Notes: generated from the letters alone by a model not told the origin. Positions 6,883 through 54,508 are shown, numbered from the stretch's first letter. The stretch: DNA of 64,000 nucleotides from an uncultured Clostridia bacterium (GCA_948502395.1 CAOPES010000002.1:142631-206630), one strand, 5' to 3'. Translations and numbers: made by a program.

Positions 6883-6983
6883 CTGCTTTTCATCTCCTTT
6901 TTTCATACAGATATATTACCACTTTTTTGCCAAAATATCAAGAAAAAGAAACCATTTTATGTTAGTTTCTTTTTTCTTTATTA

Positions 6984-9734: not shown

Positions 9735-9801
9735 TCCTTATTTCTATTTTTAACAAATTTTACTAAAATTATGCTACTCTTTTTGGGTTTTGGGTGTTTT
9801 T

Positions 9802-9909
9802 GGGTGTTTTTGGGGACAGTCCTTAAAAACACCCAAAACTTTTATTGCTTTTCTATTTACTTTTCATTTTCTCTTAGGGTGTTTTTAAGGACTGTCCCCA
9901 AAAACACCC
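9802..9909. repeat. Hairpin-repeat pair C (GGGTG-stem variant, two inverted units)
   Basis: GGGTGTTTTTGGGGACAGTCCTTAAAAACACCC (9802-9834) and its inverse GGGTGTTTTTAAGGACTGTCCCCAAAAACACCC (9877-9909). The pair lies in the 5' UTR of the ATPase. Confidence 0.9.
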
Positions 9910-9923
9910 TTGACTTAAAAATC

Positions 9924-10050
9924 AAAAAAGACTTTTAAAAGGATTTTTTGTTTCCTTTTAAAAGTCTCGCTTACTATTTTTATAGCTTACTAACCAGATA
10001 CTCTTTTGTATCGCGACTGTTGATTAGTAATTGAAAGCTACTCCCTTTTA
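9924..10050 (-). promoter_or_regulatory. yybP-ykoY (Mn2+) riboswitch-like leader with an intrinsic terminator
   Basis: The minus strand reads UAAAAGGGAGUAGCUU...ACUAAUCA..GAUAC-AAAAGA-GUAUC..UGGUUAGU-AAGCUA-UAAAAAUAGUAAGCGAGACUUUUA. Recognisable parts are a GGGAGUAG loop, nested helices, a CUAU-AAAA-AUAG hairpin and UAAGCGAGAC. The 3' P1 strand overlaps the terminator GACUUUUAAAAGGA...UCCUUUUAAAAGUC followed by a U-tract. Confidence 0.6.
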
Positions 10051-10074
10051 ATTTTAGTTTTTTGTTATTCTTAT

Positions 10075-10102
10075 TTTATATCTTTTTGGATTACATTGTC
10101 AA
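10075..10102 (-). promoter_or_regulatory. Sigma-A-type promoter for the riboswitch/ATPase transcript
   Basis: Minus strand TTGACA (10097-10102), a 16-nt spacer, then TATAAA (10075-10080). It lies about 25 nt upstream of the riboswitch P1. Confidence 0.55.
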
Positions 10103-10326
10103 GTGTTTTAGATTTTTTCTGCGTCAAATAATTTTTACTCAAATATTTGACATTTGGTAAAATTTATAGTAATATAAATATAGATAGAATTAATTAAGTA
10201 TTTTATCAATATAATAAAAAAGAGAAAAGAGCTTATAGCTCAATTCTCTGAGTTGTTTGGATTGATGTTTTCCTTGGCTGGGGCTACATCAATCTCTTTT
10301 TTTGTCATTTTAAATGTGTTGTTTAT

Positions 10327-10611
10327 TCATTTTAACACATTCTCTAAAATAACCTTATCTCCTTCTAAAAAAGCTTGTAGCACAACCATATCACCAACGT
10401 CAAAATCCCTATAAATCAAATCAGCCATTTCATTATATGCACGCACTTCCAGCTGTATTGATTTATCTATGTTGCTATTTCTAAAACCTTCTTCTGTCTT
10501 TAATACAAACGTTGCCTTTGATATCAATTTTTTACTATTAAAAAAGAAGTTAAATTCAACATCTGAAATAATCGTTCCAGATAAATAACATATATTTATA
10601 TTTGTTTTCAT
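10327..10611 (-). CDS. Hypothetical small protein (possibly OB-fold/SSB-like)
   Basis: 94-aa ORF. The N-terminus NINICYLSGTIISDVEF resembles the start of SSB/PriB-type OB folds. This is weak evidence. Confidence 0.45.
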   Translation of the reverse strand: MKTNINICYLSGTIISDVEFNFFFNSKKLISKATFVLKTEEGFRNSNIDKSIQLEVRAYNEMADLIYRDFDVGDMVVLQAFLEGDKVILENVLK

Positions 10612-10727
10612 AATTTAATATTCTTTCATATGCTGATACTTCCATTGTTTATTCCTTTACCATTTTTTATTTATCTTTCATCTCTATACTTTCCAAATGA
10701 GAGCTTCCAGGCTTTCAGTGGTCAGTA

Positions 10728-12360
10728 TTACCTTATGTAAAGCACAGGGCGGAAGCCAATGTCGATGCTGAACCCAGTAGCGGAACCGTTGCCGTGGCGG
10801 ATAGACACAGGGCCGTCGCTACCGTAGTTGCCGAAACCACCCCCACGAAGAACAGCAAACGTCGTTCCAGAACTTCCGTTTGCAGTAGTGTGATTTCCTG
10901 TTTCAGTAGTCCATTCCCACATATTTCCTGCCATGTCGTATATATTTTTTACTTTTGTTTCATCTGCTGCTCCTGTCGCTAGTTCTTTATATATATAATA
11001 ATTATAATTTGTGTCATCATATGAATTTAATGCAAATTCATATTGGTCTCTTATTGATGTTCCTAATGTTACTCTTCCTGACGTTATATTTGCTTTTTTA
11101 TATTTTGTTGCTACTGTCCAATAATCATTTTTATTATTTGCTACCCCTGTTGCATTTCTATTTGCATATCTATGTAAGGCATATAATGTATTTGCTGTTA
11201 TTGTAGTATTGTCTAAATAATTTCCGTAATTTTTACTATCCATTCCTATTCCACTATATTTGCTATCACTTGCCATCCACTTTACAGCTGTATCCCATGC
11301 ATAACTATCCACTAATCCACTTGTTACTGATGTACTTGCTTTATACATATTTTCAGAAACTTTTTTAGCTTTTTCTTGTGATATATAATTCCAGCTTTGT
11401 GTTCCTTTTTGTACTATTGGCCTCATACTTAATACTTCCTCAGAGTTCTTCTTTTCTTCTTTATAATATGTTGCTCCTTCACTATCTGCGTAAAAATCTG
11501 CATCTCTTGGCACTCCTGCTTCATATCTTCCTATATAAAATCCACCATATTTTGTTACACTTGCGTAATTTCCACCATTATCTGACCAACCTGTTATAGC
11601 TTGCCCAGCATTTGTATATCCTGATGGTACTGTTGTGTAGTACCATTGCTTGCTTTTATACTCTTCCCAATATGATGCTAATCCATGATTTCCTGTTCCA
11701 TTATCATCTGTTTTTTCGTACGTTATTCCATTTGTTCCTGAACATGGTATCCACACAAATTGATTCCCTTTTTTGCTGTTGCTATCATCGTCTCCCATTT
11801 TGTCTGAAATTACTAGTCCTGTTGATGGCGTTCCTGTTACATAGTAAAATCCTGTTGGTATTACTGCTTTGTTCATTTTGTCTTCTTTTTCTGTTATTAC
11901 TGCTCTAACACTTTGTTCTTTTAATAATGCTTCTTCCGCACTTCCTTTTTCTGCATTTGCTAGTGTTATTTCTTCTAGATTGTTTTTTTCTAATGTTTGT
12001 TTTTCTTCTGTTCCACCTGTTATTTCACTTAGTGTGTATTCTTTGTTTTTGTATGTTACTGTTCCTTTTGCTATGTTTGCTGTTATTCCGTCTTTTTTTC
12101 CTAGTTCTGTTAGTATGTATTCGTCTTCTTGCATGTCTGTTGCACTTCCATAGTATTCTGACATTATTCCTAGTGCTTCTGTTTGCAAGTATTCTAAGTC
12201 TCCTGCTGCGTTTGTTTTTTCTTTTGCTTGTACTGCTTTTCCTAGTATTCCATTGTCTCCTGTTAATGTGCTTATTGCTACTCCGTGCTAGTATTAATAA
12301 CACTATTATTGTGATTACTAGTGCTATTAAGGTAATTCCTTTGTTTTTTTGTTTTTTCAT
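10728..12360 (-). CDS. Prepilin-type N-terminal signal + FGE-sulfatase (SUMF1) domain protein; the frame is broken at an in-frame CGG (+1)
   Basis: The N-terminus is MKKQKNKGITLIALVITIIVLLILA, then CGG (plus-strand CCG 12283-12285). Skipping the C gives GVAISTLTGDNGILGKAVQAKEKTNAAGDLEYLQTEALG..., which joins ORF 10728..12188. The C-terminus GNMWEWT...LRGGGF...GFRPV is FGE-sulfatase-like. Confidence 0.75.
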
Positions 12361-15375: not shown

Positions 15376-16116
15376 TTAATTTTTTTCTTTTCCTAATATG
15401 ATATGATAAGTTCTTTTTATAAAATCATTATAATCATTTAATATTACACTCGAATCAAAATCATCTTCAATTTTATCTGAATATTTTAATAAATCCTCAT
15501 CATGAATAACACTTCTATAATATTCAGCGTAATCTTCTACATCACGATATGTAAAATCAGGAGCTTTCTCCTTTAAATTTACTAATAAAATTAATGTTTT
15601 ATCCGGTGCATGAAAATATACACTTGGATCATCTTTTGAAAGAATCAAATATTTGCTTAATTGATGTTGAGAAATATTATCATAATGATCAAATTTTCCT
15701 CCATCTTTATAATAAGGTACTTTATCAAATATTATAAAAATTTGAAAATAAGGAATTGAATTTGAACGTATATTAGCAGTTTCTCCCAACATATTTTCAA
15801 AATAATTATTACTGTTTTGTGAATAATTTCTCATTACAAATTTAACTGCATATCCCGCAACAGGTACTCCTTTATGATAAATTGTTATATCTACCCTTTT
15901 AGGATAATATCTACCTTTAATAGTTCCTTCTTTATCGTTTCCTATTCCTTGAGATTTTATTGAATATTCATTTCCTAATATTTCAGATAAATCACTTGCA
16001 ATATGTCCATGTAAAGTTTTTAACTTTGCTGTACTTGTTGATGTTCCAACATTTAAATATGTAGCAAAAGATTCTTTTATAATTTCTAAAAATTGATTAT
16101 TATTCAACATTGACAA
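15376..16116 (-). CDS. Putative type II restriction endonuclease (partner of the adjacent methyltransferase)
   Basis: 246-aa ORF overlapping the methylase 3' end by 17 nt. It has a possible PD-(D/E)XK-like RVDITIY...AVKFV. Assigned mainly from context. Confidence 0.5.
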
Positions 16117-17578
16117 ATTTCCCCCCTAATTTATAATCTAAATAACTTTTTACGTCTTTTGAAGAAAAAGTATAATATCCTCCGCTTTTATATTTTCCCA
16201 ACAGTGATACAAATACCCCAAATTCTTCATCTTTTAAGGCTTTTTTTATTTCATCAGTTTGTATATTATCACTAGTTATATATAATCCACTATATACTCC
16301 ACTTCCAGCTTTAACATCAGTAACTTTTAAATCACTTGAATTCGTTATCAAAGCATTTATACCTATCTTATCTTTGTATGTGTCATTGATACCTTGACTG
16401 CGACCAAATGCATACCAATATTTTTCTGTGTCTCTTTCATTACTTCTTTTAATTAGCTTTTCTTTATTGTTTAGCAAATAATTGTATAATGTTTCATCCT
16501 TTTTTAATTCATTTTCTTCAACTAACTTTCCATTTTCATCATATGGGTAAAAGATTTTTGTCCATTTAGCTCTTGACCCCTTTACAGCTGGTATAATATA
16601 TTTTGAAGCAAAATCAAAATTATTTATAAATATTTTATCCGCCAAAGTTGCGTATCCATTTTTTACCTTAATATCTGTATGTGATGAATTATTCAAGACT
16701 TCTTTTAATAATTTTAAATTTTCAACTTTTGAAAAATAATAATTATTATTTGTTATGTATTCTTTTTGACTTAATTCAGTAATAAATTTTTGTTTTAATT
16801 TTTCTTCATCAAACTCAAAATATTTAACTAAATCTTTTTTATATTGTTTATTTAAACATACGATTGTTGTATAAGTACTTGCATTAAATGGTTGAAAATG
16901 TTTTAAATCGCAAATACTTTCAATTAATAAATTATCATTAAAATATCTACGCATATTTGTTCCTGCTACACTTGTAAAAAAAGATGATGGAGTAATATAA
17001 CATAAAATTCCTTTTTCATTTAGCATTTTAATTCCTTTTTCATAAAATACTATATATAAATCTGTCATTCCACCATTTCCAAATAAATAACTTTTAACTG
17101 TATCAATGTCATCATTTAAATTATGAACTCTAACATATGGCGGATTACCTAATACAAAATCCATTTTACCATCAAAAATATCAGTTTTTAATGTATCCAA
17201 ATTAATAAAATCCCAATTAACATTTTTTATATTATATAATTCTGCTACTTTTGAACATCTTTCTTTACAAATTTCCAATTCATCTAAATCAATATCTATT
17301 CCATGAATATATGTTTCTAATTCTATTTTTAATTTATTTAAGTCTTTATTTTGTTTAATGAAATCTTTGCAATATCTATCAACGATGTGAATTAAGAATT
17401 GACCATCCCCACAACTATTGTCTATTGCATGTTTTTTATTAATATTACCTTCAATATAATGTCCTTGATCTAGAATGTCGTCTACTAGATAATCAGGAGT
17501 AAATATTTTTCCTCGATGTTTAATTTTAATAAATTCATCTACTGCTTTTTCATTTTTATATATTTTTTCTTTTGGCAT
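16100..17578 (-). CDS. N6-adenine DNA methyltransferase (Eco57I/TaqI-like gamma class)
   Basis: [10 protein letters not shown] (SAM-binding motif I) and VLGNPPYV (motif IV). The start is probably the ATG at 17578, preceded by GGGGGA. Confidence 0.85.
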
Positions 17579-17602
17579 TTTAATCCCCCATATTATCTTC
17601 AA

Positions 17603-40799: not shown

Positions 40800-41387
40800 C
40801 TATCTTTCTACTTCTTGTTCCAGTAATCTCTTTCTTAACTTTTCTAATGCAATTCTTCTTGCGCTTATTTGATTTTTTTCTTCTTGTGAAAGTTCTGCTA
40901 AGGTTTTGCCGTTTTCTAATTCGAATATTTCATCAAATCCAAATCCATTTTCTCCTTTGACTTCTTCTGCAACAAAGCCTTCAATTTTTCCTACTTCACA
41001 TATTGTTTCTTTTCCGTCTGATAGCGCAATTGCTGTAACAAAGTTTATTTTTCTTTTTTCTCTTGGAATTCCTTTTAGTTTTTCTATTATTGCTAAGTTT
41101 CTTTCTCTGTCAGTTCCTTCATGCCATCTTTTGGTAAATACTCCTGGGAATCCGTCTAAATATTCTATTTCTATTCCAGAATCGTCGGCAATGCATTGTT
41201 TTCCGTTAAGTTGTTTTGCTATTGTTTCTGCTTTTTTTATTGCGTTTCCTTCAAATGTTTTTTGGTCTTCTTCTACGTCTATGTCTATTCCAATTTCTTT
41301 CATTGAGATTATTTTGTAGTTTTTTAGTATTTCTACGGCTTCTTTTATTTTTCCTTTGTTTCCTGATGCAATTACTATTTCTTTCAT
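40800..41387 (-). CDS. rdgB: dITP/XTP pyrophosphatase (RdgB/HAM1)
   Basis: MKEIVIASGNKGKIKE...DSGIEIEYLDGFPGVFT...GENGFGFDEIF...SARR. Confidence 0.88.
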   Translation of the reverse strand: MKEIVIASGNKGKIKEAVEILKNYKIISMKEIGIDIDVEEDQKTFEGNAIKKAETIAKQLNGKQCIADDSGIEIEYLDGFPGVFTKRWHEGTDRERNLAIIEKLKGIPREKRKINFVTAIALSDGKETICEVGKIEGFVAEEVKGENGFGFDEIFELENGKTLAELSQEEKNQISARRIALEKLRKRLLEQEVER

Positions 41388-41418: not shown

Positions 41419-42174
41419 TTATACCCAATTTCTTATAAACTCATCATTAAATGTATATTGACTTGATGGTCTGTATGCAGATTCTTTGACTACTTTGTCT
41501 GTTTTCTTAATCATCGGTTCTATTTTCTTTCTAAAATTTGCTGATACTAATTTTGTATCTAATATTATTTCATAAATTTGTTGTAACTCTGAAATTGCAA
41601 ATTCTTTATTTAGAAAACAAAATGCTATATTCGTATTTTCAATTCTATTTCTTAATCTTTTTATTCCTGTATGAATTATAATGGCTGTTAGTTCTGTTAT
41701 TTCTGCCTTTCCTACAAGTTTATTTATATACTCAACATTTTCTCTTTCTCTTTTTGTTATTGTTTCTATTTTATATTTTACTTTTATATTCTCATCACTT
41801 AATGTAACTTTTTGTATGTCTGAGTTTTCATTTTCTATGTTTATATTGTAAAAGCTCATATTTTTAGGCATAGTTTCGATATTGCTTTTGTTTATTATTG
41901 CTAAATATGTAATTATTAACTCTTCTTTATCTGTATAATATTTAGGATCTCCCCAAGTATATAACTGCTCTATATAGAATTTATTAGTTCCAAACAATTC
42001 TTTCATTTTATGCGCTGCTATATCTTTTATATATTCTTTATTTGTAATATCAAATGTAGGAAAACTATTATCTTCGGACAAAAGTAGTTGCAATTTCTTT
42101 TCTCTCAATTTTCTAACATCTTTTCTTTCTTCATTATCTGTACTAAATATTATTAAATTACCTTTAATCTTCAT
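41419..42174 (-). CDS. NrtR-like regulator (Nudix-like domain + C-terminal winged helix)
   Basis: FYIEQLYTWGDPKY (Nudix-related) and ...NFRKKIEPMIKKTDKVVKESAYRPSSQYTFN. This resembles the NrtR family. The call is from memory. Confidence 0.45.
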   Translation of the reverse strand: MKIKGNLIIFSTDNEERKDVRKLREKKLQLLLSEDNSFPTFDITNKEYIKDIAAHKMKELFGTNKFYIEQLYTWGDPKYYTDKEELIITYLAIINKSNIETMPKNMSFYNINIENENSDIQKVTLSDENIKVKYKIETITKRERENVEYINKLVGKAEITELTAIIIHTGIKRLRNRIENTNIAFCFLNKEFAISELQQIYEIILDTKLVSANFRKKIEPMIKKTDKVVKESAYRPSSQYTFNDEFIRNWV

Positions 42175-42189
42175 TTTAAAATCTCCTAA

Positions 42190-42699
42190 CTATTGGTTTT
42201 CTTCAAGGAATATTTTTGATATCTTGTTGTAAAAAACTGTTTCATTTTTCACTATTTCTCTGACATTTATTTTTCCAACAATATCTATAAATCTATATAT
42301 TTTTTCTTCATTTAGTAACTGTAATTCTCCATCTTTATCTTTTACTACTTTTAATAATTCTTCTGGAATCACTATATTGTATTTTTTTATTATTCTACTA
42401 TTTAGTTTATCATAGTCATCATAAATATGTTCATCCCATTTTTCTAAAAAGTTATTGTAGAATAAATAATCAGTCATTAAATGTAGAAAATATCCTTCAT
42501 CAAACTCGTTTGTAATTCCTGTTTCCTTTAAATATCTATCTAAATTTGGATTACTAGAATATGGTCCATAGTGAGATTTGCCTTTGTCTTTTGCTAAATC
42601 TGGTGCTATTATTCCTCTTTCAAAATTTTCCGAGTTACTAATTTTATTATTCTTTGTGTACACTTTTCCAACGGCTAAATGTATTGCATATCCCGGCAT
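42190..42699 (-). CDS. Hypothetical protein (possible metal-dependent hydrolase)
   Basis: 169 aa with MPGYAIHLAVG...HYGPYS...FLHLMTDYLF. The His-rich motifs are not assignable. Confidence 0.4.
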   Translation of the reverse strand: MPGYAIHLAVGKVYTKNNKISNSENFERGIIAPDLAKDKGKSHYGPYSSNPNLDRYLKETGITNEFDEGYFLHLMTDYLFYNNFLEKWDEHIYDDYDKLNSRIIKKYNIVIPEELLKVVKDKDGELQLLNEEKIYRFIDIVGKINVREIVKNETVFYNKISKIFLEENQ

Positions 42700-42722: not shown

Positions 42723-43682
42723 TTATATTTCAAAGCATGTTCTTTTATTTCTATGGCACGCTACTCCTTTCTGATTTACTAAAAATAATATTGTATCTGA
42801 ATCACAATCTAAATAAATTTTTTCTATATACTGTATATTACCACTTTTTTCTCCTTTTGTCCACAGAGTTTTTCTGTTTCTACTGTAATACGTTGCTTTT
42901 TTAATTTCATAAGTTTTTTTCAAACTTTCTTTGTTAGAATATGCCAACATTAATACTTCTTTTGTTTGTGAGTCTTGAACTATTGTTGGTATTAATCCAT
43001 TTTGTTTTTCAAAATCCATTATTTCAATGTAGCAATCCATAATATTTAACTTACCAGAAGTTATAGCCATTCCTAATACTTGATCAAATCCCAGTTTATG
43101 AATGTGTTTTATTTCGTTTATTGTTGTAATCCCTCCTGCAACCATAATATCATTTTTTGTTTTTCCAACTAGTGTTTCAAAAAAGTTCAAATCTGTCCCA
43201 GAATTTAATCCTTCTACATTTACATTTGTAATTAAAAATTTGTAGCAATACTTTTCTAATTCTAGCATTCTTTCATATATATTTTCTTTTTTTAACTCAG
43301 TCCATCCATGTGTTGCTATTTTTCCATTTTTAGTGTCTAAGGCAACTATAACTTTATTTTTAGGCAATTTAGTTAAAAATTCTTTATTCGCTCTTGTTCC
43401 TACTATTACACTATTTGCTCCTGCTTCTATATATTCGTTTGCTAGCTTGGCACTTCTAACTCCGCCTCCTACATTACAGGTCAATTTTTTACATAGCTTT
43501 TTTATTAGTTCTTTATTACTCCCTTTACTCATTGCAGAATCTAAGTCTATAACATTTATTTGTGGAAATATCTTATATTGCTCTACTATTGCTTCTATAT
43601 CATCATTTTCATATACTTTTTCCTTTCCCTGTTTTAATTGAACGACTTTTCCATTCATTATATCAATTGAAGGTATTATCAT
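42723..43682 (-). CDS. Fusion of HisA-like ProFAR isomerase (N-terminal) and HisI phosphoribosyl-AMP cyclohydrolase (C-terminal)
   Basis: [19 protein letters not shown]...NVIDLDSA...VGGGVRS is HisA-like. [24 protein letters not shown]...[18 protein letters not shown]...[19 protein letters not shown] is HisI-like. Confidence 0.8.
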
Positions 43683-43696
43683 TTATTCACCACCCC

Positions 43697-44137
43697 TTAA
43701 TAATTTTTTAAATATTTCTTTTTACTTATTTGCTCTAAATCATGCATAATAACTTCATTTACTGTTATTGGCTTTGTTTCTCCTATTTTTGTAATATCCA
43801 CTTGTTTTAAGATTTCTTCTATTTTAGCCTCTTCATTAAATTCTTCATATTGAACTTTTTTACTTATTGCAAACAAGGTTTTCCAATAAATATATTGTGA
43901 TATTTCATTTACTAAAATTTCTCTTTTAGTCATATTTTCATGATAATGTTCTCCTAGTATTGCTTCTTCTACTTCTTGCTTTTCTTCTAACATTTTTCTA
44001 TTACAATATTCTTCTACTTGTTTGTCTTTTTTCATAAGTGCTAAAATAAGTTTTTTAGTATTTGACATTTCTTCTGTTATTTCGTTATTATCTCTTATAC
44101 ACTCATATAATTTATATCTTTTTTGTGATTCTTTCAT
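43697..44137 (-). CDS. MazG/HisE-like all-alpha NTP pyrophosphohydrolase (possible phosphoribosyl-ATP pyrophosphatase)
   Basis: 146 aa. EE-rich helices (QVEEYC..EVEEAI..VNEISQYIYW) resemble HisE. The call rests on this weak similarity plus context. Confidence 0.45.
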   Translation of the reverse strand: MKESQKRYKLYECIRDNNEITEEMSNTKKLILALMKKDKQVEEYCNRKMLEEKQEVEEAILGEHYHENMTKREILVNEISQYIYWKTLFAISKKVQYEEFNEEAKIEEILKQVDITKIGETKPITVNEVIMHDLEQISKKKYLKNY

Positions 44138-44154
44138 CTCAACACCTCAACATA

Positions 44155-44910
44155 TTACTTTATTTGTAATCTTTTATTAAATTCTATATATGCATTTAAA
44201 ACTTCTTCATCATTTTTTAGTTGTCTAAATGAATCTTTGGTTAAGCTTTTTCCTGTTTGAATGTCATTTGCTCTTATACAATCTTGAGAAATTTCATCTA
44301 TTACAACTATATTTCCTTCTTCATCAAACCCAAGCTCCATTTTCATATCTATTAACTTCATATCTGCTTTTTCTAAATTTTCTCTAATTATTTCTCCTAC
44401 TTGTGCCAATACATTTTTGGCTTTTTCAAATTCTTCTTGTGTCAAAAGTTCTAATCCTATAATATAGTTTTCATTTAGTGTTGGGTCATCTACTCCTGCT
44501 ACCTTAATATCTTGTTTCAAATCAAATTTATATAATGGTGTTTTAAATTTTTGTCCTTCTTTTACTAAGCTTGGGTATAACCTTACTATACTTCCTGCTG
44601 CGTAGTATCTGCAAATGAATTCTAATGGGATTGTTTTTACTTTTTTTACTAGTATACCTTCTTCTCCATCTATTTTTTGAATTTTTGTATCTTTTATCTG
44701 TGTTCTTATCCCCTTACTTTCTAGTAAATTCATAAAATACATATTTGCTATTAATCTTTGATGATCTGTTCCTTTTATATTTTCTTCTCTTTTTGATGTT
44801 ATAGACCTTAGATGTGGTTTAAAACACATAAAATAAGTATTTTCATTTAATTTAAATATTTTTTTAGATTTTCCTTCTATCTCTGGCATTTTATTTTTTA
44901 ATGTATACAT
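44155..44910 (-). CDS. SAICAR-synthetase (PurC) family protein; either canonical PurC or a CofB/PenC-like paralogue
   Basis: EGKSKKIF, IPLEFICRYYAAGS and LIDMKMELGFDEEGNIVVIDEISQDCIR align with PurC motifs. Confidence 0.8.
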   Translation of the reverse strand: MYTLKNKMPEIEGKSKKIFKLNENTYFMCFKPHLRSITSKREENIKGTDHQRLIANMYFMNLLESKGIRTQIKDTKIQKIDGEEGILVKKVKTIPLEFICRYYAAGSIVRLYPSLVKEGQKFKTPLYKFDLKQDIKVAGVDDPTLNENYIIGLELLTQEEFEKAKNVLAQVGEIIRENLEKADMKLIDMKMELGFDEEGNIVVIDEISQDCIRANDIQTGKSLTKDSFRQLKNDEEVLNAYIEFNKRLQIK

Positions 44911-44912
44911 AG

Positions 44913-46100
44913 TTACATCACTTTCCTTTCCAACTCTTCTTTTACCGCATTTATAACTTCTACAATTTGTCTATTTGTATCTAATATTACTACTTTTGCT
45001 AAATTATATTTTTTTACAAATTCTACGGCTTTTTTATATAATTTATAATACTCTTTTAATGATTGTAGTTCATCAAAATTGTCTTGTTCTCCACTTCTTT
45101 TCTTTGTTCTCTCTAAGGCAATTTCTGGTGATATATCACAATAAAATAATACATTTGGCATAGGCTCCCATGTTTTTATTACTTCTAAAATTTGTTCATC
45201 TGTAAATTTTTGTTTTATTAAATCTGTCATAAATGTTAATATTGACCTATCATATATACTATTTACATTTTTAGGTGCTCTCCAATGTTTTTTACCAATT
45301 TCTGTTGCCCATTCTATATACTTCCCTTGATCCCATAATTTCTTTGCTTCATTTCCTACTTTGCCTGAATATGGCGTTATTAATACTTTCGAGTTTGTAT
45401 CCATTACAGGATTTTGGACTAAATATTTAGCCAAAGTTGACTTTCCTGAACCATCTAACCCGTCAAATGCTATGATTTTTCCTTTTTCTTGTTTTGGTAT
45501 AAGTCCTAATTCTTCAAATAGACTAATTTTTTCTGTTTTCTGTGTTGCTAGAATCGCTCCAAATTTTACAAATGGTTTATATTCTATAAGCCCATTCTCT
45601 TTTGCACTTGTTCCTGTTTCTACAACATCAAATATACTATCAGCCCATCCTAGTAGTACTGTTGCTTCTACACTGCCTGAAATTTTTACTATATTTTCTT
45701 CTGCTATTCCTAAATAGTCTTTTGCTAAATTCTCATAACTTGTTGCTACTTTTCGTTTTTGAAAATAGTCAAAAGGTTTATCAGCTAATTCTTCTTTTAC
45801 TAATAAACTTATTCTACAATTTGTTTGTTCAAAATATTTTAATGAAATCATGGATTTATGTCCACTTTCTAGCCATTGGTCACTTCCGTATATAATCATA
45901 TCAAACTTATCACTATATCTTTTTATGTCTTCCCATCTTAATAGTGTTATTTCTAATATGTAAGTAGGTGTTTCAATTCTATGAACTAATTTTCTTGATT
46001 TTTCTATCTCTGCCAAACCTATACTTTTCAAATATTCTTGTAGTACAGGTAACAATTTCCCTTTTCCAGCACCTAACTTAATTACAGGCTTCTTACTCAT
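44913..46100 (-). CDS. Fusion of HisG-like ATP phosphoribosyltransferase (N-terminal) and a dTMP-kinase-like nucleotide kinase (C-terminal)
   Basis: IKLGAGKGKLLPVLQEYL...GSDQWLE...CRISLLV...SGSVEATVLLGWADSIFDVVETGTSAKENGL is HisG-like. IIAFDGLDGSGKSTLAKYL is a thymidylate-kinase-type P-loop. Confidence 0.75.
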   Translation of the reverse strand: MSKKPVIKLGAGKGKLLPVLQEYLKSIGLAEIEKSRKLVHRIETPTYILEITLLRWEDIKRYSDKFDMIIYGSDQWLESGHKSMISLKYFEQTNCRISLLVKEELADKPFDYFQKRKVATSYENLAKDYLGIAEENIVKISGSVEATVLLGWADSIFDVVETGTSAKENGLIEYKPFVKFGAILATQKTEKISLFEELGLIPKQEKGKIIAFDGLDGSGKSTLAKYLVQNPVMDTNSKVLITPYSGKVGNEAKKLWDQGKYIEWATEIGKKHWRAPKNVNSIYDRSILTFMTDLIKQKFTDEQILEVIKTWEPMPNVLFYCDISPEIALERTKKRSGEQDNFDELQSLKEYYKLYKKAVEFVKKYNLAKVVILDTNRQIVEVINAVKEELERKVM

Positions 46101-46115
46101 ATTTTTTCCTCCTTT

Positions 46116-47135
46116 TTAAACTTTACTTTGCTTAAATAAAATCTTTTCAATTTCTTTTGTTAAGTATTTATATTTGTTTTGAGTTATTCTTTCAATATCT
46201 TCTTTTGTAATTACTATTATGCTTGTTGATTCTGATGTTTTTGAAAATGCCTGACCATTAAATGAATTTCCTATTAATGTTATTAATGATTTAATAATAT
46301 TTTTAGGTAATTTAGGTAGCATTTGTTTTAATATATTATAAGTTCCCTGAAATGCATGATATACTGAAACTTCCATTTTCATTTTTTCTCCTATACCAAT
46401 AATTCCAATACTTTCTTTTTCCGAAAATGGTTCTTTGCCAATTACTAAAATATTGTCTAACTCTTCATTAGGTTTTAAAACTTCTACATCAATTGTAATT
46501 TTGCTAGATGCTTCCATTGCTATTCCACTTAATTCTCCATAAGATTGCAAACTATGTACATCACCTAAATACAATCCAGCTCCTTCTATATCTACTGGAA
46601 GATATATATCTGTATTTTCTGTAACAAATGGTAAATCTAAATTTCCACCATTTTTAGGGCCTGCATGACCTGTTTTTATTCTTTCACCATTAGGTGTTGT
46701 TGCTATCATGCCTATCATAGGCTTATATTTTAGCTCTATATTGTTTAAGTACTTTAATCCATCTTTTACCCTTTTAGCTATAACAGGTGCTCTTTCTGAT
46801 AATTCTGAGCTTTTTATTGGATCTATTCCTGCTGTCTTTGACATGGTTTGTGCCATCTCACTTACATCTATTTTATATATATGAACTTTTAATACATCTC
46901 CTGGCTTTGCATTTTCTATATAAATTGGCCCTGTTAATGGGTGATGATGCGTCTTCCCATTTTTGCTATTTATTAGTTTCATTAACTCGTTTATATTTTT
47001 AAATCTATCTCCATATGCATTTATAGTTTCTACACAAACTTTTTCTTTTTGTGGCATTTTTGCAATAAACTTATTTTCTTTATCTATAATTGTTTGGTAA
47101 TTACATTTTATATTAAACATATTGTAATCTTTCAA
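46116..47135 (-). CDS. Acetamidase/formamidase (FmdA_AmdA) family protein
   Basis: HHPLTGPIYIENAKPGDVLKVHI, GGNLDLPFV and GDVHSLQSYGELSGIAMEAS. Confidence 0.75.
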   Translation of the reverse strand: MKDYNMFNIKCNYQTIIDKENKFIAKMPQKEKVCVETINAYGDRFKNINELMKLINSKNGKTHHHPLTGPIYIENAKPGDVLKVHIYKIDVSEMAQTMSKTAGIDPIKSSELSERAPVIAKRVKDGLKYLNNIELKYKPMIGMIATTPNGERIKTGHAGPKNGGNLDLPFVTENTDIYLPVDIEGAGLYLGDVHSLQSYGELSGIAMEASSKITIDVEVLKPNEELDNILVIGKEPFSEKESIGIIGIGEKMKMEVSVYHAFQGTYNILKQMLPKLPKNIIKSLITLIGNSFNGQAFSKTSESTSIIVITKEDIERITQNKYKYLTKEIEKILFKQSKV

Positions 47136-47799
47136 TTCCTTTCTTTTTATCCTTTAATGGTTGTAAAGGTCTTATATCTAAATATGGAATATAAACTTTT
47201 TTTGGTAATTTTATTATATTTACTATTGCCATGCCAACTTCTTCTGGCATTAGTTTCCACTCTTCATAAATTCCGTGATCTCTATTTTTTATACTTCCAA
47301 TTGATAAATAAGAAACCCTTACATCTTCATATCTTACTTCTTCTCTTAAACATTCTGCTAGTCCTCTTAATGCTAGTTTTGTTGAGCAATATGCTCCACC
47401 TTCTCCAAAAGTATATTTTTCCGAATGTGACCCTACAATCACTATGTCTCCTTTTGCATTTTTTACGTTTTTTATAAACGTATTTAATACATAGAAAGCA
47501 CCATTTAAATTAGTCTTTACTGAATTATTCCAATCTTCCACTTGCATATTCTCTATTTTTTGAAATCTTCTGATTCCTGCATTTATTACTAATACATCAA
47601 TTTTTTTATTTACCATATTTTTTATATTTTGAATACTTTCATATTTTGAGACATCACACTGTATTTCTGTATAATTTTCTATTTTTTCATTTGAAACAGT
47701 TCTATTTAAGCCTATTACTTTATAGCCTTGTTTTAATAAGATATTTCTTATTCCTGCTCCAAGTCCTCTATTACACCCTGTTATTAATGCTGTTTTCAT
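47113..47799 (-). CDS. Short-chain dehydrogenase/reductase (SDR)
   Basis: TALITGCNRGLGAG (TGxxxGxG), NAGI and S...YCSTK, the catalytic triad region. Confidence 0.85.
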   Translation of the reverse strand: MKTALITGCNRGLGAGIRNILLKQGYKVIGLNRTVSNEKIENYTEIQCDVSKYESIQNIKNMVNKKIDVLVINAGIRRFQKIENMQVEDWNNSVKTNLNGAFYVLNTFIKNVKNAKGDIVIVGSHSEKYTFGEGGAYCSTKLALRGLAECLREEVRYEDVRVSYLSIGSIKNRDHGIYEEWKLMPEEVGMAIVNIIKLPKKVYIPYLDIRPLQPLKDKKKGIERLQYV

Positions 47800-47857
47800 T
47801 AAAAGTACCTCCTATAATTTTATTAAATTGCTTTTCTTTCTACCAACGCCTATATAT

Positions 47858-49213
47858 TTATACTCTTTTAGCTATTTTCTCAGCTAATCCTGTATAATTT
47901 TTAGGTGTTAACTTTAATAACATTTCTTTGTCTTTTTCGTTAAGCTTTAAATTTTTCACAAATTCTCTTATGTCCTCTATTGAAATATTTTTTCCTCTTG
48001 TTAATCCTTTTAAGGTTTCATAAGCATTCTCATAGCCATTTTTTCTTAATATAGTTTGAACTGCTTCTGCTAAAACCTCTGGTGTGTTATTAAGATCAGA
48101 TCTTAATTTTTCTTCATTAACAGTTGATTTATTTATTCCTACTATTGTTTGTTTTATTGCAATAATACTATAAGCAAATACCATTCCTATATTTCTTTGT
48201 AGTGATGAATCGCTTAAATCTCTTTGCATTCTTGATATTTGTATATTATTGAGAAACACATCTATTATCCCATTTGACATTTTTATGTTTGCCATTGAGT
48301 TTTCAAAATTTATAGGATTTATTTTATGTGGCATTACTGATGACCCTACTTCCCCTGCTATATTTTGTTGTTTAAAATAATTTCTACTAATATACATCCA
48401 CATATCATTATTAAAGTCTAATATAATATTGTTTAATAATTTAATTTCTGAAAGTATAATTGAAATACTGTCATGTGATTCAATTTGAGTTGTATACATA
48501 TTATATTCTAAGCCAAAGCTTTCAACAAACTCTTTTGCAACTTTTATCCAATCGACATTAGGATAACTTATCAAATGTGCATTAAAGTTTCCCACTGTTC
48601 CATTAAATTTTCCTGTTAATTTTTCTTGTTTTATTCTATTTAAAATTTTCTCCATTCTATATACAGCTATTGCAAATTCCTTACCAACAGTTGTTGGTGT
48701 TGCATTTTGTCCATGTGTATGTGAGAGTATTGGAATATTTGCATAATTTTGTGCTTTTTCTTTTAGTATCTGAACTAATTGACTTACATTTGGAATATAA
48801 ACATTTTTTACTAATTCTTTTTCCATAATTCCATAAGCAATGTTATTTATGTCTTCGGAAGTACAAGCAAAATGTACTAAATTGTTGTATTTTTGAAGAT
48901 TATTTTCTGCAAGTTTTTCATCAATATAGTATTCAACTGCTTTAACATCATGTTTTGTTATTTGTTCTATTTCTTTTATTCTTTTAGCATCATCTATATC
49001 AAACTCTTTTGATATTTTATCTAATATTGTAAGTTCTTCCTTCTTAATTTCTAATCCTAGTTCTTTTATATTAAACAATTTTTTTAACCATTCAATTTCA
49101 ACAATAACTCTATTTTTAATTAAGTGATATTCACTGAAATATTTTCTTACTTCTTTTGTTGTTTCTTTGTATCTTCCATCTATTGGTGATATGTTCAATA
49201 ATTCTTTTTCCAT
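47858..49213 (-). CDS. purB: Adenylosuccinate lyase
   Basis: 451 aa with GSSVMPHKINP (fumarate-lyase signature) and HTHGQNATPTT. Confidence 0.9.
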   Translation of the reverse strand: MEKELLNISPIDGRYKETTKEVRKYFSEYHLIKNRVIVEIEWLKKLFNIKELGLEIKKEELTILDKISKEFDIDDAKRIKEIEQITKHDVKAVEYYIDEKLAENNLQKYNNLVHFACTSEDINNIAYGIMEKELVKNVYIPNVSQLVQILKEKAQNYANIPILSHTHGQNATPTTVGKEFAIAVYRMEKILNRIKQEKLTGKFNGTVGNFNAHLISYPNVDWIKVAKEFVESFGLEYNMYTTQIESHDSISIILSEIKLLNNIILDFNNDMWMYISRNYFKQQNIAGEVGSSVMPHKINPINFENSMANIKMSNGIIDVFLNNIQISRMQRDLSDSSLQRNIGMVFAYSIIAIKQTIVGINKSTVNEEKLRSDLNNTPEVLAEAVQTILRKNGYENAYETLKGLTRGKNISIEDIREFVKNLKLNEKDKEMLLKLTPKNYTGLAEKIAKRV

Positions 49214-49222
49214 AAATTCCTC

Positions 49223-50506
<1,284 letters not shown>

Positions 50507-50546: not shown

Positions 50547-50575
50547 ATTATACATACTATAATATTTTTTGTCAA
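50547..50575 (-). promoter_or_regulatory. Consensus sigma-A promoter of purA
   Basis: Minus strand TTGACA (50570-50575), a 17-nt spacer, then TATAAT (50547-50552). Confidence 0.7.
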
Positions 50576-51136: not shown

Positions 51137-52678
51137 CTAAAATGGCAACTCATATATATTTGAATTTATAGCTAATTTAACATATTCTATAAAAGAACTT
51201 TTTAATTTTGGTGCTTTTGTTTTTATTTGGTTATACAATTTATTTAATTCTTCATAATACATTTTATTTACAGTATTATGATCAAAAACATTTACAGTAA
51301 TAAATTTAGACATTCCAACATCACTAAAAAATTGTAACTTATCTAAATTCTCTCCTAATCTTTCTAAGAATTCCTCTATTTGTTTGTCATCTAGTTTATT
51401 ATAACTTTCAAATTTTCTATTTTCATTATTTGTTCCACATATATTATCTAAAACGTCTATTAGCTTTTCTTTTAATTCTTCAACATCTATATTATTCTCA
51501 ATTTCTTTAGTAGAAATATTTTTCATTTTAGTATGAGTATTATATTTTGAAATTTCATCTTTAATTTCAGATATACTTTGATACCTATTATCAGGAGTAT
51601 TATCCAAGCATTTTTCTACAATGGTATCTAATAATATCATTCTTTTAGTATCAAATTTTTCTGTTAATTTTTTTCTATGTGTTCCTTTATGAGTTTCTCC
51701 GAATACCATCCATTGTACTAACTGTCCTATTGCATAAATATCCATAGTTGGCTTTGGTTTTTCTTTACTGTTTCTTTGCTCAGGTGCTGCGAAATCAAAA
51801 TTAGCCAGTCTTTCACTAGACATAGTATGCCCTGTCATTTCAAAAATATCTGGATTATAATATGCTATTCCAAAATCTGTTATTACTATATTAAATTGGT
51901 TATCTAATAATATGTTTTGAGGTTTTAAATCTCTATGTATAATTCCTCTTTTATGTACTTGTTCTATACAATCAATTATTTGTTTAAATATTCTAATTAT
52001 TTCTTCTTCTGAAAAATTAGGATCAAATTTTAAAGTTCCACTATATTGTTTCATAACTATTATATCTAATATATCATCTCCAATAGTTACTGTATCGTAA
52101 AAGTAAAGAGTAGCAATGTTTTCTAAATCATTCAATTTTATTACTACATTAGCAAATTCACAAAGAAATCGATTTATCTTATTTTTAGAATTTGCAATTA
52201 ATATTTTAGTTGCAACCTTTTCTCCTTGCAATTCTCCAAATATAACAATGCTATTTCCACCTTCTTTTATATTTAAAGAATCAAATTTTATACTTCCATA
52301 TTTAGTTACTATTTCCTTCTTTTCTTTAAGTTTTTTTATTATATCTTTTCTATCAACAAATTTACTAACTTTCGTTCTTTCAGTATTTTTCTCTTTTAAA
52401 TTTATTTTATCAAATATTTCGCACAAACCATATATAGTATCATCTAATACTTGTCGCCTTTCCGCATATCCACCATAAGTTTGCATTTTTCTTCTAAAAT
52501 CTATTATACTTCCAGTATATTTAAAAATCTCTGGTGTTTCAATACCATATTTTATTGCAAATTGCCTGAATTCTACAAAAAAATCTTTAAATTCTTTTTG
52601 TGTTATTGTTTCATTTCCATATGTAGCAATTGATTCTAGCTCTCCTTTAAATTCTATTAATTTCTGTGTATCCATTTT
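51137..52678 (-). CDS. Cytoplasmic Ser/Thr protein kinase with unknown N- and C-terminal domains
   Basis: HRDLKPQNILL, ITDFGIAY and FAAPEQ. There are no TM or PASTA repeats. The likely start is the ATG at 52678, preceded by GAGGGA. Confidence 0.8.
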   Translation of the reverse strand, partial: KMDTQKLIEFKGELESIATYGNETITQKEFKDFFVEFRQFAIKYGIETPEIFKYTGSIIDFRRKMQTYGGYAERRQVLDDTIYGLCEIFDKINLKEKNTERTKVSKFVDRKDIIKKLKEKKEIVTKYGSIKFDSLNIKEGGNSIVIFGELQGEKVATKILIANSKNKINRFLCEFANVVIKLNDLENIATLYFYDTVTIGDDILDIIVMKQYSGTLKFDPNFSEEEIIRIFKQIIDCIEQVHKRGIIHRDLKPQNILLDNQFNIVITDFGIAYYNPDIFEMTGHTMSSERLANFDFAAPEQRNSKEKPKPTMDIYAIGQLVQWMVFGETHKGTHRKKLTEKFDTKRMILLDTIVEKCLDNTPDNRYQSISEIKDEISKYNTHTKMKNISTKEIENNIDVEELKEKLIDVLDNICGTNNENRKFESYNKLDDKQIEEFLERLGENLDKLQFFSDVGMSKFITVNVFDHNTVNKMYYEELNKLYNQIKTKAPKLKSSFIEYVKLAINSNIYELPF

Positions 52679-52750
52679 TTCTATCCCTCTTAATTTTTTA
52701 TAATTATAACATATTTTGTAAAATATATAAATATATTGCTTATTTTTTAA

Positions 52751-53044
52751 GTTCACTTAGTGTACTAAATAAAAATGGATTTGTTCACTAGGCGTACTTT
52801 TTCTAAAAATCAAGTACACTCGGTGAACTTTTGTCTAAAATAAGTGAACTTTTTCCAATTTTTAGTTCACTATTTTTGGTTTTAACGAAGAATAGCGGGT
52901 TTGAGCCAGTTCACTCGGTGAATTTCTGCATCATATTTGCTTAAAATTTTTGTTTCTTTATTAACTCTTGAAGGCTTGCCCTTCAATGTGTGTAGGCATT
53001 GTGTTAAACATGCTTTCCTGCCTTTAGTATTCACCTTAGTTCAC
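52751..53044. repeat. Iteron-like cluster of A-GTTCACT words
   Basis: Exact GTTCAC/GTGAAC occurs at 52751, 52783, 52823, 52844, 52865, 52909 and 53039. Two near-copies are also present. One site is the palindrome GTTCACTCGGTGAA. Confidence 0.8.
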
Positions 53045-53620: not shown

Positions 53621-54508
53621 TTATATTATTAAACCTTCTTTATCTAATCCTAATATTCTTTTTGATACAGCAGAAACATCTACTCCCTGTTGTTGAAATT
53701 TTTTATATAATTCCGTTAATTCTTTTTCACATACATCTTCTTTTTCTTTTTGAATCAAAGCTCTACGAGTCATTCCTTCTGGATATTTTTTATCTGGTAC
53801 ATATACTTCTATCATAAGTTTCCCAAGCTCATTCCACATAGCTATTTGTACTTGATTTAAAAGAAAGTCATATTCTCCATTTTGATTAGTTGATATTGAA
53901 AAATCAGTATTCCCTCTTATAACTTTTGGAGGCACTAGTGCATTAAAATTTATTTGAAAATCTTTTGGATTAGAATATTTTTTTATAAATCCATACCTAA
54001 TGTCTCTTTTTAATCTAGTGTTAAAACTTTTTTCAGAATAACTACTTCTATATTCTTGTATTTGTTCTTCATTTTCATTTTCTAATTTTTCTTTTGCTTC
54101 TTTTGTCGTATATTCCTCTGGTTGATTTTCTAAACATTGTTTTTCTTTTCGTTCTTCATCAGTTAATTCTTTCTCTCCAAAAAGTTCCTTGAATTTTAAT
54201 TCTAAAAATTCTTGAGATACTACTGTGTTAGATTTTATGTATTCTTCTATATCTTCTTGTGTAAAAACTTTTCTCTTCATTTCTAAAACTTTAGCTATAA
54301 TATTTTTATTTTTCTCTATCCAATTTTGTAAATATGGATAACTAAATTCATTCATTATATCAATATCTTCAAAATATTTTTCTAAACCTTTAATTTTAAT
54401 TTCTTCTATTAGTATTTGTGCTACTTTCATAGCAATAATTTCATACTTTTCTAAACTTCCAAAACATTCTATTTTTTGTTCTTCAGTTATTTCGGTATCA
54501 TTAATCAT
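53621..54508 (-). CDS. Hypothetical protein
   Basis: 295-aa ORF with no recognisable motif. Confidence 0.55.
   Translation of the reverse strand: MINDTEITEEQKIECFGSLEKYEIIAMKVAQILIEEIKIKGLEKYFEDIDIMNEFSYPYLQNWIEKNKNIIAKVLEMKRKVFTQEDIEEYIKSNTVVSQEFLELKFKELFGEKELTDEERKEKQCLENQPEEYTTKEAKEKLENENEEQIQEYRSSYSEKSFNTRLKRDIRYGFIKKYSNPKDFQINFNALVPPKVIRGNTDFSISTNQNGEYDFLLNQVQIAMWNELGKLMIEVYVPDKKYPEGMTRRALIQKEKEDVCEKELTELYKKFQQQGVDVSAVSKRILGLDKEGLII

Follow-up and report, generated by a model that had tools for sequence, protein, structure and literature searches.

A conserved cluster of PurC-like, HisG-kinase, reductase and amidohydrolase genes in uncultured gut Clostridia and DPANN archaea: a candidate pathway from ATP to a coformycin-type ribotide

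We describe here a gene cluster in a stretch of 64,000 nucleotides from an uncultured Clostridia bacterium (GCA_948502395.1, CAOPES010000002.1:142631-206630). This full 64-kb stretch is called the window below, and positions are counted from its first letter. The cluster occupies 42723-47799 on the minus strand and is part of a run of eleven closely spaced minus-strand genes spanning 50.5 to 40.8 kb in the following order: purA; purB; a short-chain dehydrogenase/reductase (SDR); an FmdA/AmdA-family amidohydrolase (Fmd); a HisG-kinase fusion; a PurC-like protein; a 146-aa HisE-like protein; a HisA-HisI fusion; a 169-aa protein; an NrtR-type protein; and Ham1. The six genes from the SDR to the HisA-HisI fusion had been described in an initial annotation of the DNA as co-oriented and tightly packed. 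All six open reading frames (ORFs) are present as described on the minus strand, with gaps of 2-17 bp or, in one case, a 23-bp overlap, and the family calls made for them were recovered with Pfam and NCBIfam profiles, except that the 146-aa protein has no Pfam match.

Upstream of purA lies a sigma-70-type promoter (50547-50575, minus strand; TTGACA-17-TATAAT, 12/12), which is a consensus match only. No terminator-like site was found on the minus strand from this promoter down to ham1, and a search of the window for purine and ZTP riboswitches returned none, with tRNAs as the sole hits. The GC content of the cluster (26-28%) is the same as that of its flanks, and the remainder of the window carries the usual chromosomal genes of a sporulating Clostridium, such as those for MetRS, RecG, CotF and tRNAs.

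The signature gene of the cluster (44155-44910, minus strand) codes for a divergent member of the SAICAR-synthetase family (PF01259, 4e-38), here termed PurC-like. It scores 113.9 bits on TIGR00081, below the cut-off of 189.9 bits. We queried 1.84 billion representative proteins with a profile of its clade and examined the best 150 matches: three full-length representatives of the clade score 436, 368 and 282 bits, after which there is an abrupt fall to 128 bits, the onset of ordinary PurC. The residues common to all aligned PurC-family proteins are kept (G13/K14/K16, R101/G106/S107, D188/K190/E192, D205/E206/D210/R213 and K225/D226/R229); in PurC structures, these make up the ATP/Mg and carboxyaminoimidazole ribotide sites. 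Where canonical PurC has the substrate loop FKDDxTAFxG, this protein has FKPHLRSxTxxRE, in which K/H/R residues are conserved, and there is a small insertion ahead of the DDP motif. This K/H/R-rich loop would suit a second phosphate, and the overall pattern of conservation agrees with an enzyme that binds ATP and uses an imidazole ribotide, with a second reactant other than aspartate. Whether the gene is merely a housekeeping purC had been put forward as one of the checks on the initial annotation; that identity is ruled out by the TIGR00081 score, the gap in the profile scores and the replaced loop, and by sequence the clade is clearly an isolated one. We also noticed a 237-aa degenerate paralogue of the clade (P0131) without the GKSK and DEISQD motifs, which is possibly non-catalytic.

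The first gene of the core (47113-47799, minus strand) encodes a 228-aa SDR reductase with the TGxxxGxG and YxxxK motifs (PF00106, 1e-34). Its 3' end overlaps by 23 nt the gene for the 339-aa Fmd amidohydrolase (46116-47135, minus strand; PF03069, 5e-25), whose closest relatives in the PDB are the uncharacterized 'acetamidases' 2ii1 and 3tkk (5e-28). The next gene (44913-46100, minus strand) encodes a fusion of a short-form HisG ATP-phosphoribosyltransferase (approximately residues 1-200; PF01634 over residues 63-190, 3e-23) with a dTMP-kinase-like P-loop kinase (approximately residues 205-395; Thymidylate_kin over residues 212-383, 6e-11). The HisG domain scores 87 bits on TIGR00070, above the cut-off of 75.75 bits. 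Both domains are probably catalytic: in nine homologues that are only 44-87% identical, D158/G163/A166/N169 of the HisG PRPP loop never vary, nor do the kinase P-loop (GxDGxGK), YDR motif and lid residues R331/D340.

The last two genes of the cluster extend the histidine-type complement. The 146-aa protein (43697-44137, minus strand) has no match in a Pfam search; however, several lines of evidence point to a four-helix protein resembling phosphoribosyl-ATP (PR-ATP) pyrophosphohydrolase, that is, HisE. The top match of its family profile against the PDB is the HisE of M. tuberculosis (E = 0.004), with which the family has in common the motifs KKxLEE...EEISQxxYW (EEISQLLYW-type). The best fold matches of its AlphaFold2 model (predicted local distance difference test score, pLDDT, 95.4) are likewise to HisE structures: 1y6x, 1yvw and 2a7w with probabilities of 0.97, 0.89 and 0.63; these are Foldseek probabilities, and the E-values for so short a helical protein are not significant. 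Two homologues are named PR-ATP pyrophosphohydrolase at JGI, and in the archaeal versions of the cluster (L009, L033 and L129) the 146-aa gene is absent and a true PF01503 HisE is found instead, fused to or adjoining the HisA-HisI protein. On this combination of sequence and model evidence the protein can be taken as HisE-like. The adjacent gene (42723-43682, minus strand) encodes a fusion of HisA, the ProFAR (N'-[(5'-phosphoribosyl)formimino]-5-aminoimidazole-4-carboxamide ribonucleotide) isomerase, with HisI, the phosphoribosyl-AMP (PR-AMP) cyclohydrolase (PF00977, 1e-40; PF01502, 1e-32). The HisG, HisI and HisA motifs are all intact; with the HisE-like protein included, the window is thus predicted to encode the full set of HisG, HisE, HisI and HisA activities.

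The later histidine genes are missing, as had been stated: tblastn with HisB, HisC, HisD, HisF and HisH queries from archaeal his operons found none in the 64 kb and, in some 40 related loci, none up to about 10 kb from the cluster. The HisA-HisI protein of the cluster is 50-56% identical to a widespread family of HisA-HisI-HisE fusions in ordinary his operons. Gastranaerophilales/Melainabacteria, DPANN and Asgard archaea together contribute more than 542 loci of this fusion family, L042-L114 among them (for example L046:8001-9233, L099:8001-9224 and L089:8001-9227). In 62 of 71 ordinary loci hisD adjoins the fusion gene, often together with hisB, hisH and hisF, whereas it does so in none of the approximately 40 cluster loci. 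Since its family sits in ordinary his operons elsewhere and none of these genes accompany it here, it is a genuine histidine enzyme that the cluster has recruited and uncoupled from the late steps.

To survey the distribution of the PurC-like clade we used a motif scan of one genome per species across 185,579 species, to which a metagenome scan added further contigs, one of them archaeal and 532 kb in length. The clade is present in 25 of these species: 22 uncultured, low-GC, Clostridia-type metagenome-assembled genomes and three DPANN archaea. Nearly all of the former come from animal guts; the hosts include the rabbit and the mouse as well as humans (UMGS1612 and Hadza samples). The latter comprise a member of Nanoarchaeota, one of Woesearchaeota and a groundwater archaeon from a 0.1-um filter. 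Look-up of the high-GC representative P0122 yielded one further organism, with 69% GC (L012). A mobile-element or phage origin was considered and rejected: no relatives of the cluster were found in plasmids or among 2.9 million viral contigs, and its GC content does not depart from that of its surroundings.

Wherever enough flanking sequence is available, in the species genomes and metagenome contigs alike, the locus contains the SDR, Fmd, HisG, kinase and PurC-like components, the one exception being L012, which lacks the SDR; the HisG domain, a dedicated PenA-like homologue, is found in all cluster loci. The constellation of PurC-like, SDR and HisG is thus kept in all the loci with enough flanking sequence but L012. 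The HisE-like and HisA-HisI components are found in the type 1 loci, that is, the clade of the window (L001-L008, L016-L018, L115-L121), and in the archaeal L009, L033, L128 and L129. The type 3 loci of the larger Clostridial clade (L011, L019-L032) and L034 have the four-gene core alone within 10 kb. Two extra genes of L034, encoding proteins of 99 and 239 aa, were checked as cryptic HisI and HisA, and neither is one. Gene order with respect to PurC-like, SDR and Fmd is conserved between Clostridia and archaea. An arrangement that persists across genomes whose cluster proteins are 45-87% identical is far from a chance one.

Several of the components are also found fused to each other: Fmd-HisG-kinase (737-739 aa) in L011 and L024; HisG-kinase-PurC (668 aa) in P0121; PurC-HisE-like (384-407 aa) in L003, L006 and several database proteins; and HisA-HisI-HisE in the cluster loci L009 and L129. 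L129, an archaeal locus, has two separate adjoining genes for HisG and the kinase. These fusions physically tie the parts of the cluster together.

The genes around this core had been described together with it, and those descriptions hold: the flanking purB and purA, the 169-aa protein without a family assignment, the NrtR-type regulator and Ham1 are all in place. Which of them, along with the formamidase-family protein, belong to the cluster and which are bystanders had been left undecided. The comparison of loci places the Fmd protein in the core and the 169-aa and NrtR-type genes among lineage-specific accessories; the adjacency of purA and purB is recurrent and not accidental. The window has a canonical adenylosuccinate lyase gene, purB (47858-49213, minus strand; PRK09285, 616 bits), probably co-transcribed with the cluster, and a canonical adenylosuccinate synthetase gene, purA (49223-50491, minus strand; TIGR00184, 530 bits), which has the same position in L118. 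A purB gene lies upstream of the cluster also in L118 and L129; in the archaeal loci, both purA and purB are upstream in L129 and purA in L033.

A divergent PurA-like paralogue, which is not PurZ, lies immediately next to the cluster in 11 distinct loci (L002, L005, L021, L024 at 10810-12102, L025, L027, L029, L031, L118, L122 and L125), on the upstream side in some of them and on the downstream side in the rest. It scores 252 bits on TIGR00184 against a cut-off of 395 bits; among themselves the copies share 63-80% identity, compared with about 27% to canonical PurA. The GDEGKGK, NKLD and RRRxGW motifs are kept, with differences near the IMP site. In L118, the paralogue, canonical purA and purB all lie ahead of the SDR. 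The window has no intact copy; however, the 58-bp spacer between purB and the SDR retains a relic of its 3' end (47812-47856, minus strand). The last 14 codons read YIGVGRKKSNLIKL, as against AYIGVGRRKSDLIKL at the C-terminus of the PurA-like protein of L005, with 12 of 14 residues identical, and in L005 and L002 the intact gene abuts the SDR. This implies that canonical purA-purB replaced a PurA-like gene in the window, and hence that adenylosuccinate-synthetase genes have been repeatedly kept or replaced at this position.

On the downstream side, the 169-aa protein (42190-42699, minus strand) is all-helical and has no Pfam or NCBIfam match, with invariant H7, D34, H43, H73 and D77. Its gene is present in most type 1 loci, and a distant 227-aa relative is encoded upstream of the type 3 clusters L024, L030 and L031; the family has 188 database relatives, all of them unnamed and likewise without a Pfam match. 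Its AlphaFold2 model (pLDDT 87.5) has no significant fold match in the PDB, and the protein may represent a new metal-dependent fold family. A zinc phospholipase-C/P1-nuclease-type phosphoesterase was considered and dropped, the best match to such a fold, alpha-toxin 1ca1 (TM 0.38, probability 0.13), being not significant and a hint at most. The NrtR/AraR-type winged-helix regulator (41419-42174, minus strand) is matched by PF21906 (3e-15), its N-terminal domain being without an assignment; its gene lies directly downstream of the cluster in all type 1 loci. Ham1/RdgB, the pyrophosphatase of non-canonical purine NTPs (ITP/XTP), is encoded at 40800-41387 on the minus strand (TIGR00042, 161 bits against a cut-off of 145). 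It adjoins the type 1 loci and the archaeal L033 (9682-10161) and L129 (15321-15863), and lies near the cluster in the type 3 L032. A ham1 gene is also seen directly upstream of the HisA-HisI-HisE gene in some his loci of Gastranaerophilales (L070 and L104). A further neighbor, absent from the window, is a 301-aa protein in which a Pfam search finds no domain and whose motifs, read by eye, indicate a CYTH-like N-terminal part (ExExK) followed by a second TMPK-like P-loop (EGTDAVGKTT). The gene for this CYTH-kinase protein precedes the SDR in six type 1 genomes (L016 at 6200-7105, L001, L007, L008, L119 and L120) and comes after PurC-like in L019.

The closest precedents for this gene content are found in the biosynthesis of purine-analogue nucleosides. 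In the pentostatin/coformycin pathways, the HisG homologue PenA together with the housekeeping HisE, HisI and HisA produces an intermediate of the type of PRFAR, the 5'-phosphoribulosyl isomer of ProFAR, on which the SAICAR-synthetase homologue PenC/CofB and then the SDR PenB/CofA act (PMC11611020; PMC12648386; bioRxiv 10.1101/728154), and dedicated hisG and hisA paralogues have been recruited into coformycin-type clusters (PMC13055916). In formycin biosynthesis, paralogues of PurA, PurB and PurC tailor the purine analogue (PMC8724604). Like the modules of Actinomycetota (PenA-PenB-PenC; CofA-CofB; ade, mac and prf), the present cluster groups an SDR and a homologue of SAICAR synthetase with a dedicated HisG homologue; HisE, HisI and HisA chemistry is needed to reach PRFAR, and the late histidine genes stand apart from the module. 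Unlike them, it is carried by uncultured low-GC Clostridia of the gut and by DPANN archaea rather than by actinomycetes or fungi, has an obligatory FmdA-family amidohydrolase and a nucleoside monophosphate (NMP) kinase domain, includes its own HisE-like and HisA-HisI copies in some lineages, and recurs with PurA-like, purB and Ham1. Formycin/pyrazofurin systems (ForA/B/C/H, which are PurA-, PurB-, PurC- and PurH-like) resemble it in grouping a PurC-like gene, and here often a PurA-like paralogue and purB, around a non-canonical ribotide pathway; they differ in that it has no beta-RFAP-synthase-type C-glycoside synthase, hydrazine machinery or PurH-like gene, and that its ribotide would come from ATP via HisG, HisE, HisI and HisA. 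Compared with a housekeeping PurC and histidine operon, the folds are the same, the invariant PurC-family residues are kept and the HisA-HisI protein falls in the genuine HisA-HisI-HisE family; in contrast, there are no pur genes nearby other than purA and purB, and the fusions are to non-histidine enzymes. A fungal counterpart of one component is Cns3 from the cordycepin/pentostatin cluster of Cordyceps militaris, which by the account of Xia et al. from 2017 is said to consist of a nucleoside/nucleotide kinase followed by HisG. It likewise combines a P-loop nucleoside/nucleotide kinase and a HisG domain in one polypeptide; however, the domain order is reversed here. The Cns3 cluster lacks a PurC-like gene, and the bacterial cluster lacks genes of the Cns1/Cns2 type.

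Taking these comparisons together, we tentatively favor a dedicated pathway in which ATP (or dATP) and phosphoribosyl pyrophosphate (PRPP) are converted to PRFAR, then to a diazepine nucleotide which is reduced, with a coformycin-type imidazo[4,5-d][1,3]diazepine ribotide as the most likely product. Homology supports the first four steps: the HisG domain would join ATP and PRPP to PR-ATP, the HisE-like protein would convert this to PR-AMP, the HisI domain would open PR-AMP to ProFAR and the HisA domain would isomerize ProFAR to PRFAR. PurC-like would then take the role of CofB/PenC, closing the seven-membered ring from the imidazole-4-carbonyl and the C1'' of the ribulosyl chain, and the SDR, of the NADPH type, that of CofA/PenB, reducing the 8-ketone. 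For CofB itself, Ren et al. (in PNAS in 2020) are said to have found that it cyclizes PRFAR with release of NH4+ and 4-phosphoerythronate, in a reaction activated by ATP and yet independent of it; the C1'' of the aminoketose made by HisA is reportedly the nucleophile in this ring closure. By analogy, the inclusion of HisA in the cluster would be telling for a coformycin-type route. For the additional components we propose that the Fmd amidase may first hydrolyze the imidazole-4-carboxamide of PRFAR to the carboxylate, which PurC-like could then phosphorylate with ATP to drive closure, making it an ATP-consuming relative of the CofB cyclization; alternatively, Fmd might free the side chain by hydrolytic C-C or C-N cleavage. 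The fused NMP-kinase could supply HisG with its nucleotide substrate or phosphorylate the product, PurA or PurA-like, PurB and Ham1 could supply or clean the adenine-nucleotide pool, and the NrtR-type protein may regulate the operon.

The initial annotation had read the six genes as a coformycin/pentostatin-type pathway. The logic of gene content behind that reading is real and documented, and the retention of PurC-like, SDR and HisG together speaks for it. Several observations weigh on the other side. The amidase is without a counterpart in the characterized bacterial pathway, and the kinase is paralleled just in the fungal Cns3, in the opposite order. HisE, HisI and HisA are absent within 10 kb from most related clusters (type 3, L010 and L034). 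The recurrent PurA-like, purB and Ham1 genes would be unneeded if the whole 5-aminoimidazole-4-carboxamide ribonucleotide (AICAR) moiety enters the product, and their association hints at a different product or at recycling of AICAR/IMP. No exporter gene is evident at the cluster, and no companion adenosine-analogue pathway of the kind expected for a protector-protege pair was found among the annotated neighbors in the window or the related loci. An inhibitor of adenosine or AMP deaminase is without obvious use for groundwater DPANN archaea. Further, among the best 150 matches of the PurC-like profile there is no high-GC (actinomycete-like) protein other than P0122, itself a member of the clade; this is indirect evidence against orthology to PenC/CofB, and the clade is not detectably close to the actinobacterial enzymes. 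Our confidence in a coformycin-type product accordingly stays short of even, because the indirect evidence on orthology is negative, the amidase lacks a counterpart, HisE, HisI and HisA are often not adjacent, PurA-like, purB and Ham1 are unexplained and companion genes are wanting.

Other readings of the same genes have to be weighed against the coformycin-type one. At one extreme, the histidine-type genes could be an ordinary hisG/E/I/A set of a split histidine regulon, with hisBCDFH elsewhere in the genome and PurC-like, SDR and Fmd as unrelated neighbors. The 50-56% identity of the HisA-HisI protein to fusions of normal his operons and the HisG score above its cut-off would be expected in this case; yet HisG is fused to the kinase, the amidase and PurC-like in different genomes and HisE-like to PurC-like, the order of the genes relative to PurC-like, SDR and Fmd is common to Clostridia and archaea, hisD, so regular a neighbor of the ordinary fusion genes, adjoins no cluster locus, and the short-form HisG has no HisZ nearby, making this reading very improbable. 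The recurrence of adenylosuccinate genes suggests a different alternative, in which ATP is a regenerated scaffold, as it is when histidine is made: after PRFAR or ProFAR, Fmd and PurC-like would either release the AICAR part or close it again, to (formyl-)AICAR/IMP, PurA or PurA-like, PurB and the kinase would return IMP to AMP/ATP, and the output would be either a small molecule derived from the phosphoribulosyl-formimino fragment, its ketone reduced by the SDR, or a folate-independent conversion of adenine to hypoxanthine/guanine nucleotides for purine auxotrophs. It is established biochemistry that PurA and PurB restore the adenine N1 after its consumption by the HisG pathway, and the genomic associations are suggestive: the PurA-like paralogue on either side of the cluster in the 11 loci, its relic in the window, canonical purA and purB in the window and L118, purA/purB in L129 and purA in L033, and Ham1 adjoining in both bacteria and archaea. 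The carriers, low-GC gut Clostridia and DPANN, are moreover apparently small-genome organisms. However, no gene of the purH, purO or purP type and no HisF/HisH-type lyase is present in any locus, no known metabolite matches the predicted fragment, and the most conserved pair, PurC-like and the SDR, is left without a natural role; a seven-enzyme route costing PRPP and ATP is also implausible in place of a single deaminase. We hence consider the scaffold scheme unlikely, and likewise judge a purine salvage (A to I conversion) unlikely as the main purpose, with PurC-like and the SDR left unexplained.

It is further conceivable, if improbable, that the route diverges only at its end: a diazepinone (or other IMP-like) ribotide would be aminated by PurA-like and PurB to an AMP-like ring-expanded nucleotide, which the fused kinase and the CYTH-kinase protein would raise to the di- or triphosphate, giving an intracellular analogue (a cofactor, a signal or an inhibitor of ATP/AMP deaminase) and not a secreted nucleoside antibiotic. 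Such a scheme would account for a PurA-like protein beside canonical purA in L118, with its core motifs kept and the vicinity of the IMP site altered, for the association of two kinds of P-loop kinase and a CYTH-like triphosphatase-type domain with the cluster, and for an adjoining Ham1 NTP pyrophosphatase where no exporter or phosphatase is identified; formycin offers a precedent with its PurA, PurB and PurC paralogues (PMC8724604). Against it, PurA-like adjoins the cluster in only about one-third of the loci and is absent from the window, the SDR would compete for the same ketone, and the chemistry is entirely hypothetical. A broader formulation, somewhat unlikely and still to be kept in view, is that the cluster is not a borrowed actinomycete antibiotic pathway but a hitherto unrecognized, vertically maintained purine-remodeling pathway in symbionts with small genomes (gut Clostridia and DPANN). 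It would convert ATP to a new non-canonical nucleotide, such as a ring-expanded IMP/AMP analogue or a coformycin nucleotide at the di- or triphosphate level, through the amidase and an ATP-dependent PurC-like cyclase, with PurA-like, PurB and Ham1 as integral parts, and the product would act in the cell, or on the host or a partner, through control over deaminases of adenosine, AMP or ATP, and in this way over adenosine signaling or deaminase-based immunity.

Genes with links to defense occur near some copies of the cluster. In the window, a 539-aa Ser/Thr protein kinase (51137-52756, minus strand) with PADLOC matches to PD-T4-6 and mad6 (1e-28) is encoded together with an uncharacterized ORF at 53621-54508, and is probably an anti-phage kinase whose gene was inserted immediately upstream of purA. 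The high-GC L012 has the cluster beside a TIR_2 protein and an AAA_15/AAA_21 and DUF4276 pair (9651-10754 and 2120-3942), and in L034 (1890-5909) it lies beside type III-A CRISPR genes (HD/Cas10-like, Csm2 and RAMPs). Elsewhere in the window, an Eco57I-family restriction-modification methylase (16100-17602; PF07669, 6e-24) with an adjoining ORF (15376-16116), both on the minus strand, is probably a type IIG/IIS restriction-modification system. When the cluster proteins themselves were compared with the PADLOC-DB defense models, the matches were limited to a weak one to VakA on the kinase domain (1.5e-10) and a negligible one to MTase_II on the amidase (E 0.0077); membership of the cluster in a defense system is thus unsupported by these matches, although defense genes adjoin some copies. 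The defense neighbors and Ham1 raise a link to deaminase-based immunity and do not establish it.

The initial annotation had suggested that no such cluster was known from a low-GC anaerobic Firmicute. In keeping with this, full-text searches of the literature returned coformycin-type clusters solely from Actinomycetota and fungi, and in the searchable full text we found no description of the present arrangement; there is a real chance that it represents a distinct pathway rather than a coformycin variant. If the product is indeed of the coformycin type, uncultured Clostridia that are common in the guts of mice, rabbits and humans would be producers of one of the most potent classes of adenosine/AMP-deaminase inhibitors. 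The pathway would then be the first of its kind beyond actinomycetes and fungi, with a direct bearing on adenosine signaling in the gut and on purine cross-feeding. The amidase, and a PurC-like protein whose ATP site is intact, suggest that the diazepine ring is reached by an ATP-driven route, which could clarify the activation of CofB by ATP. Were the product a different one, the cluster would add a branch point to the histidine/purine network, one common to bacteria and DPANN archaea.

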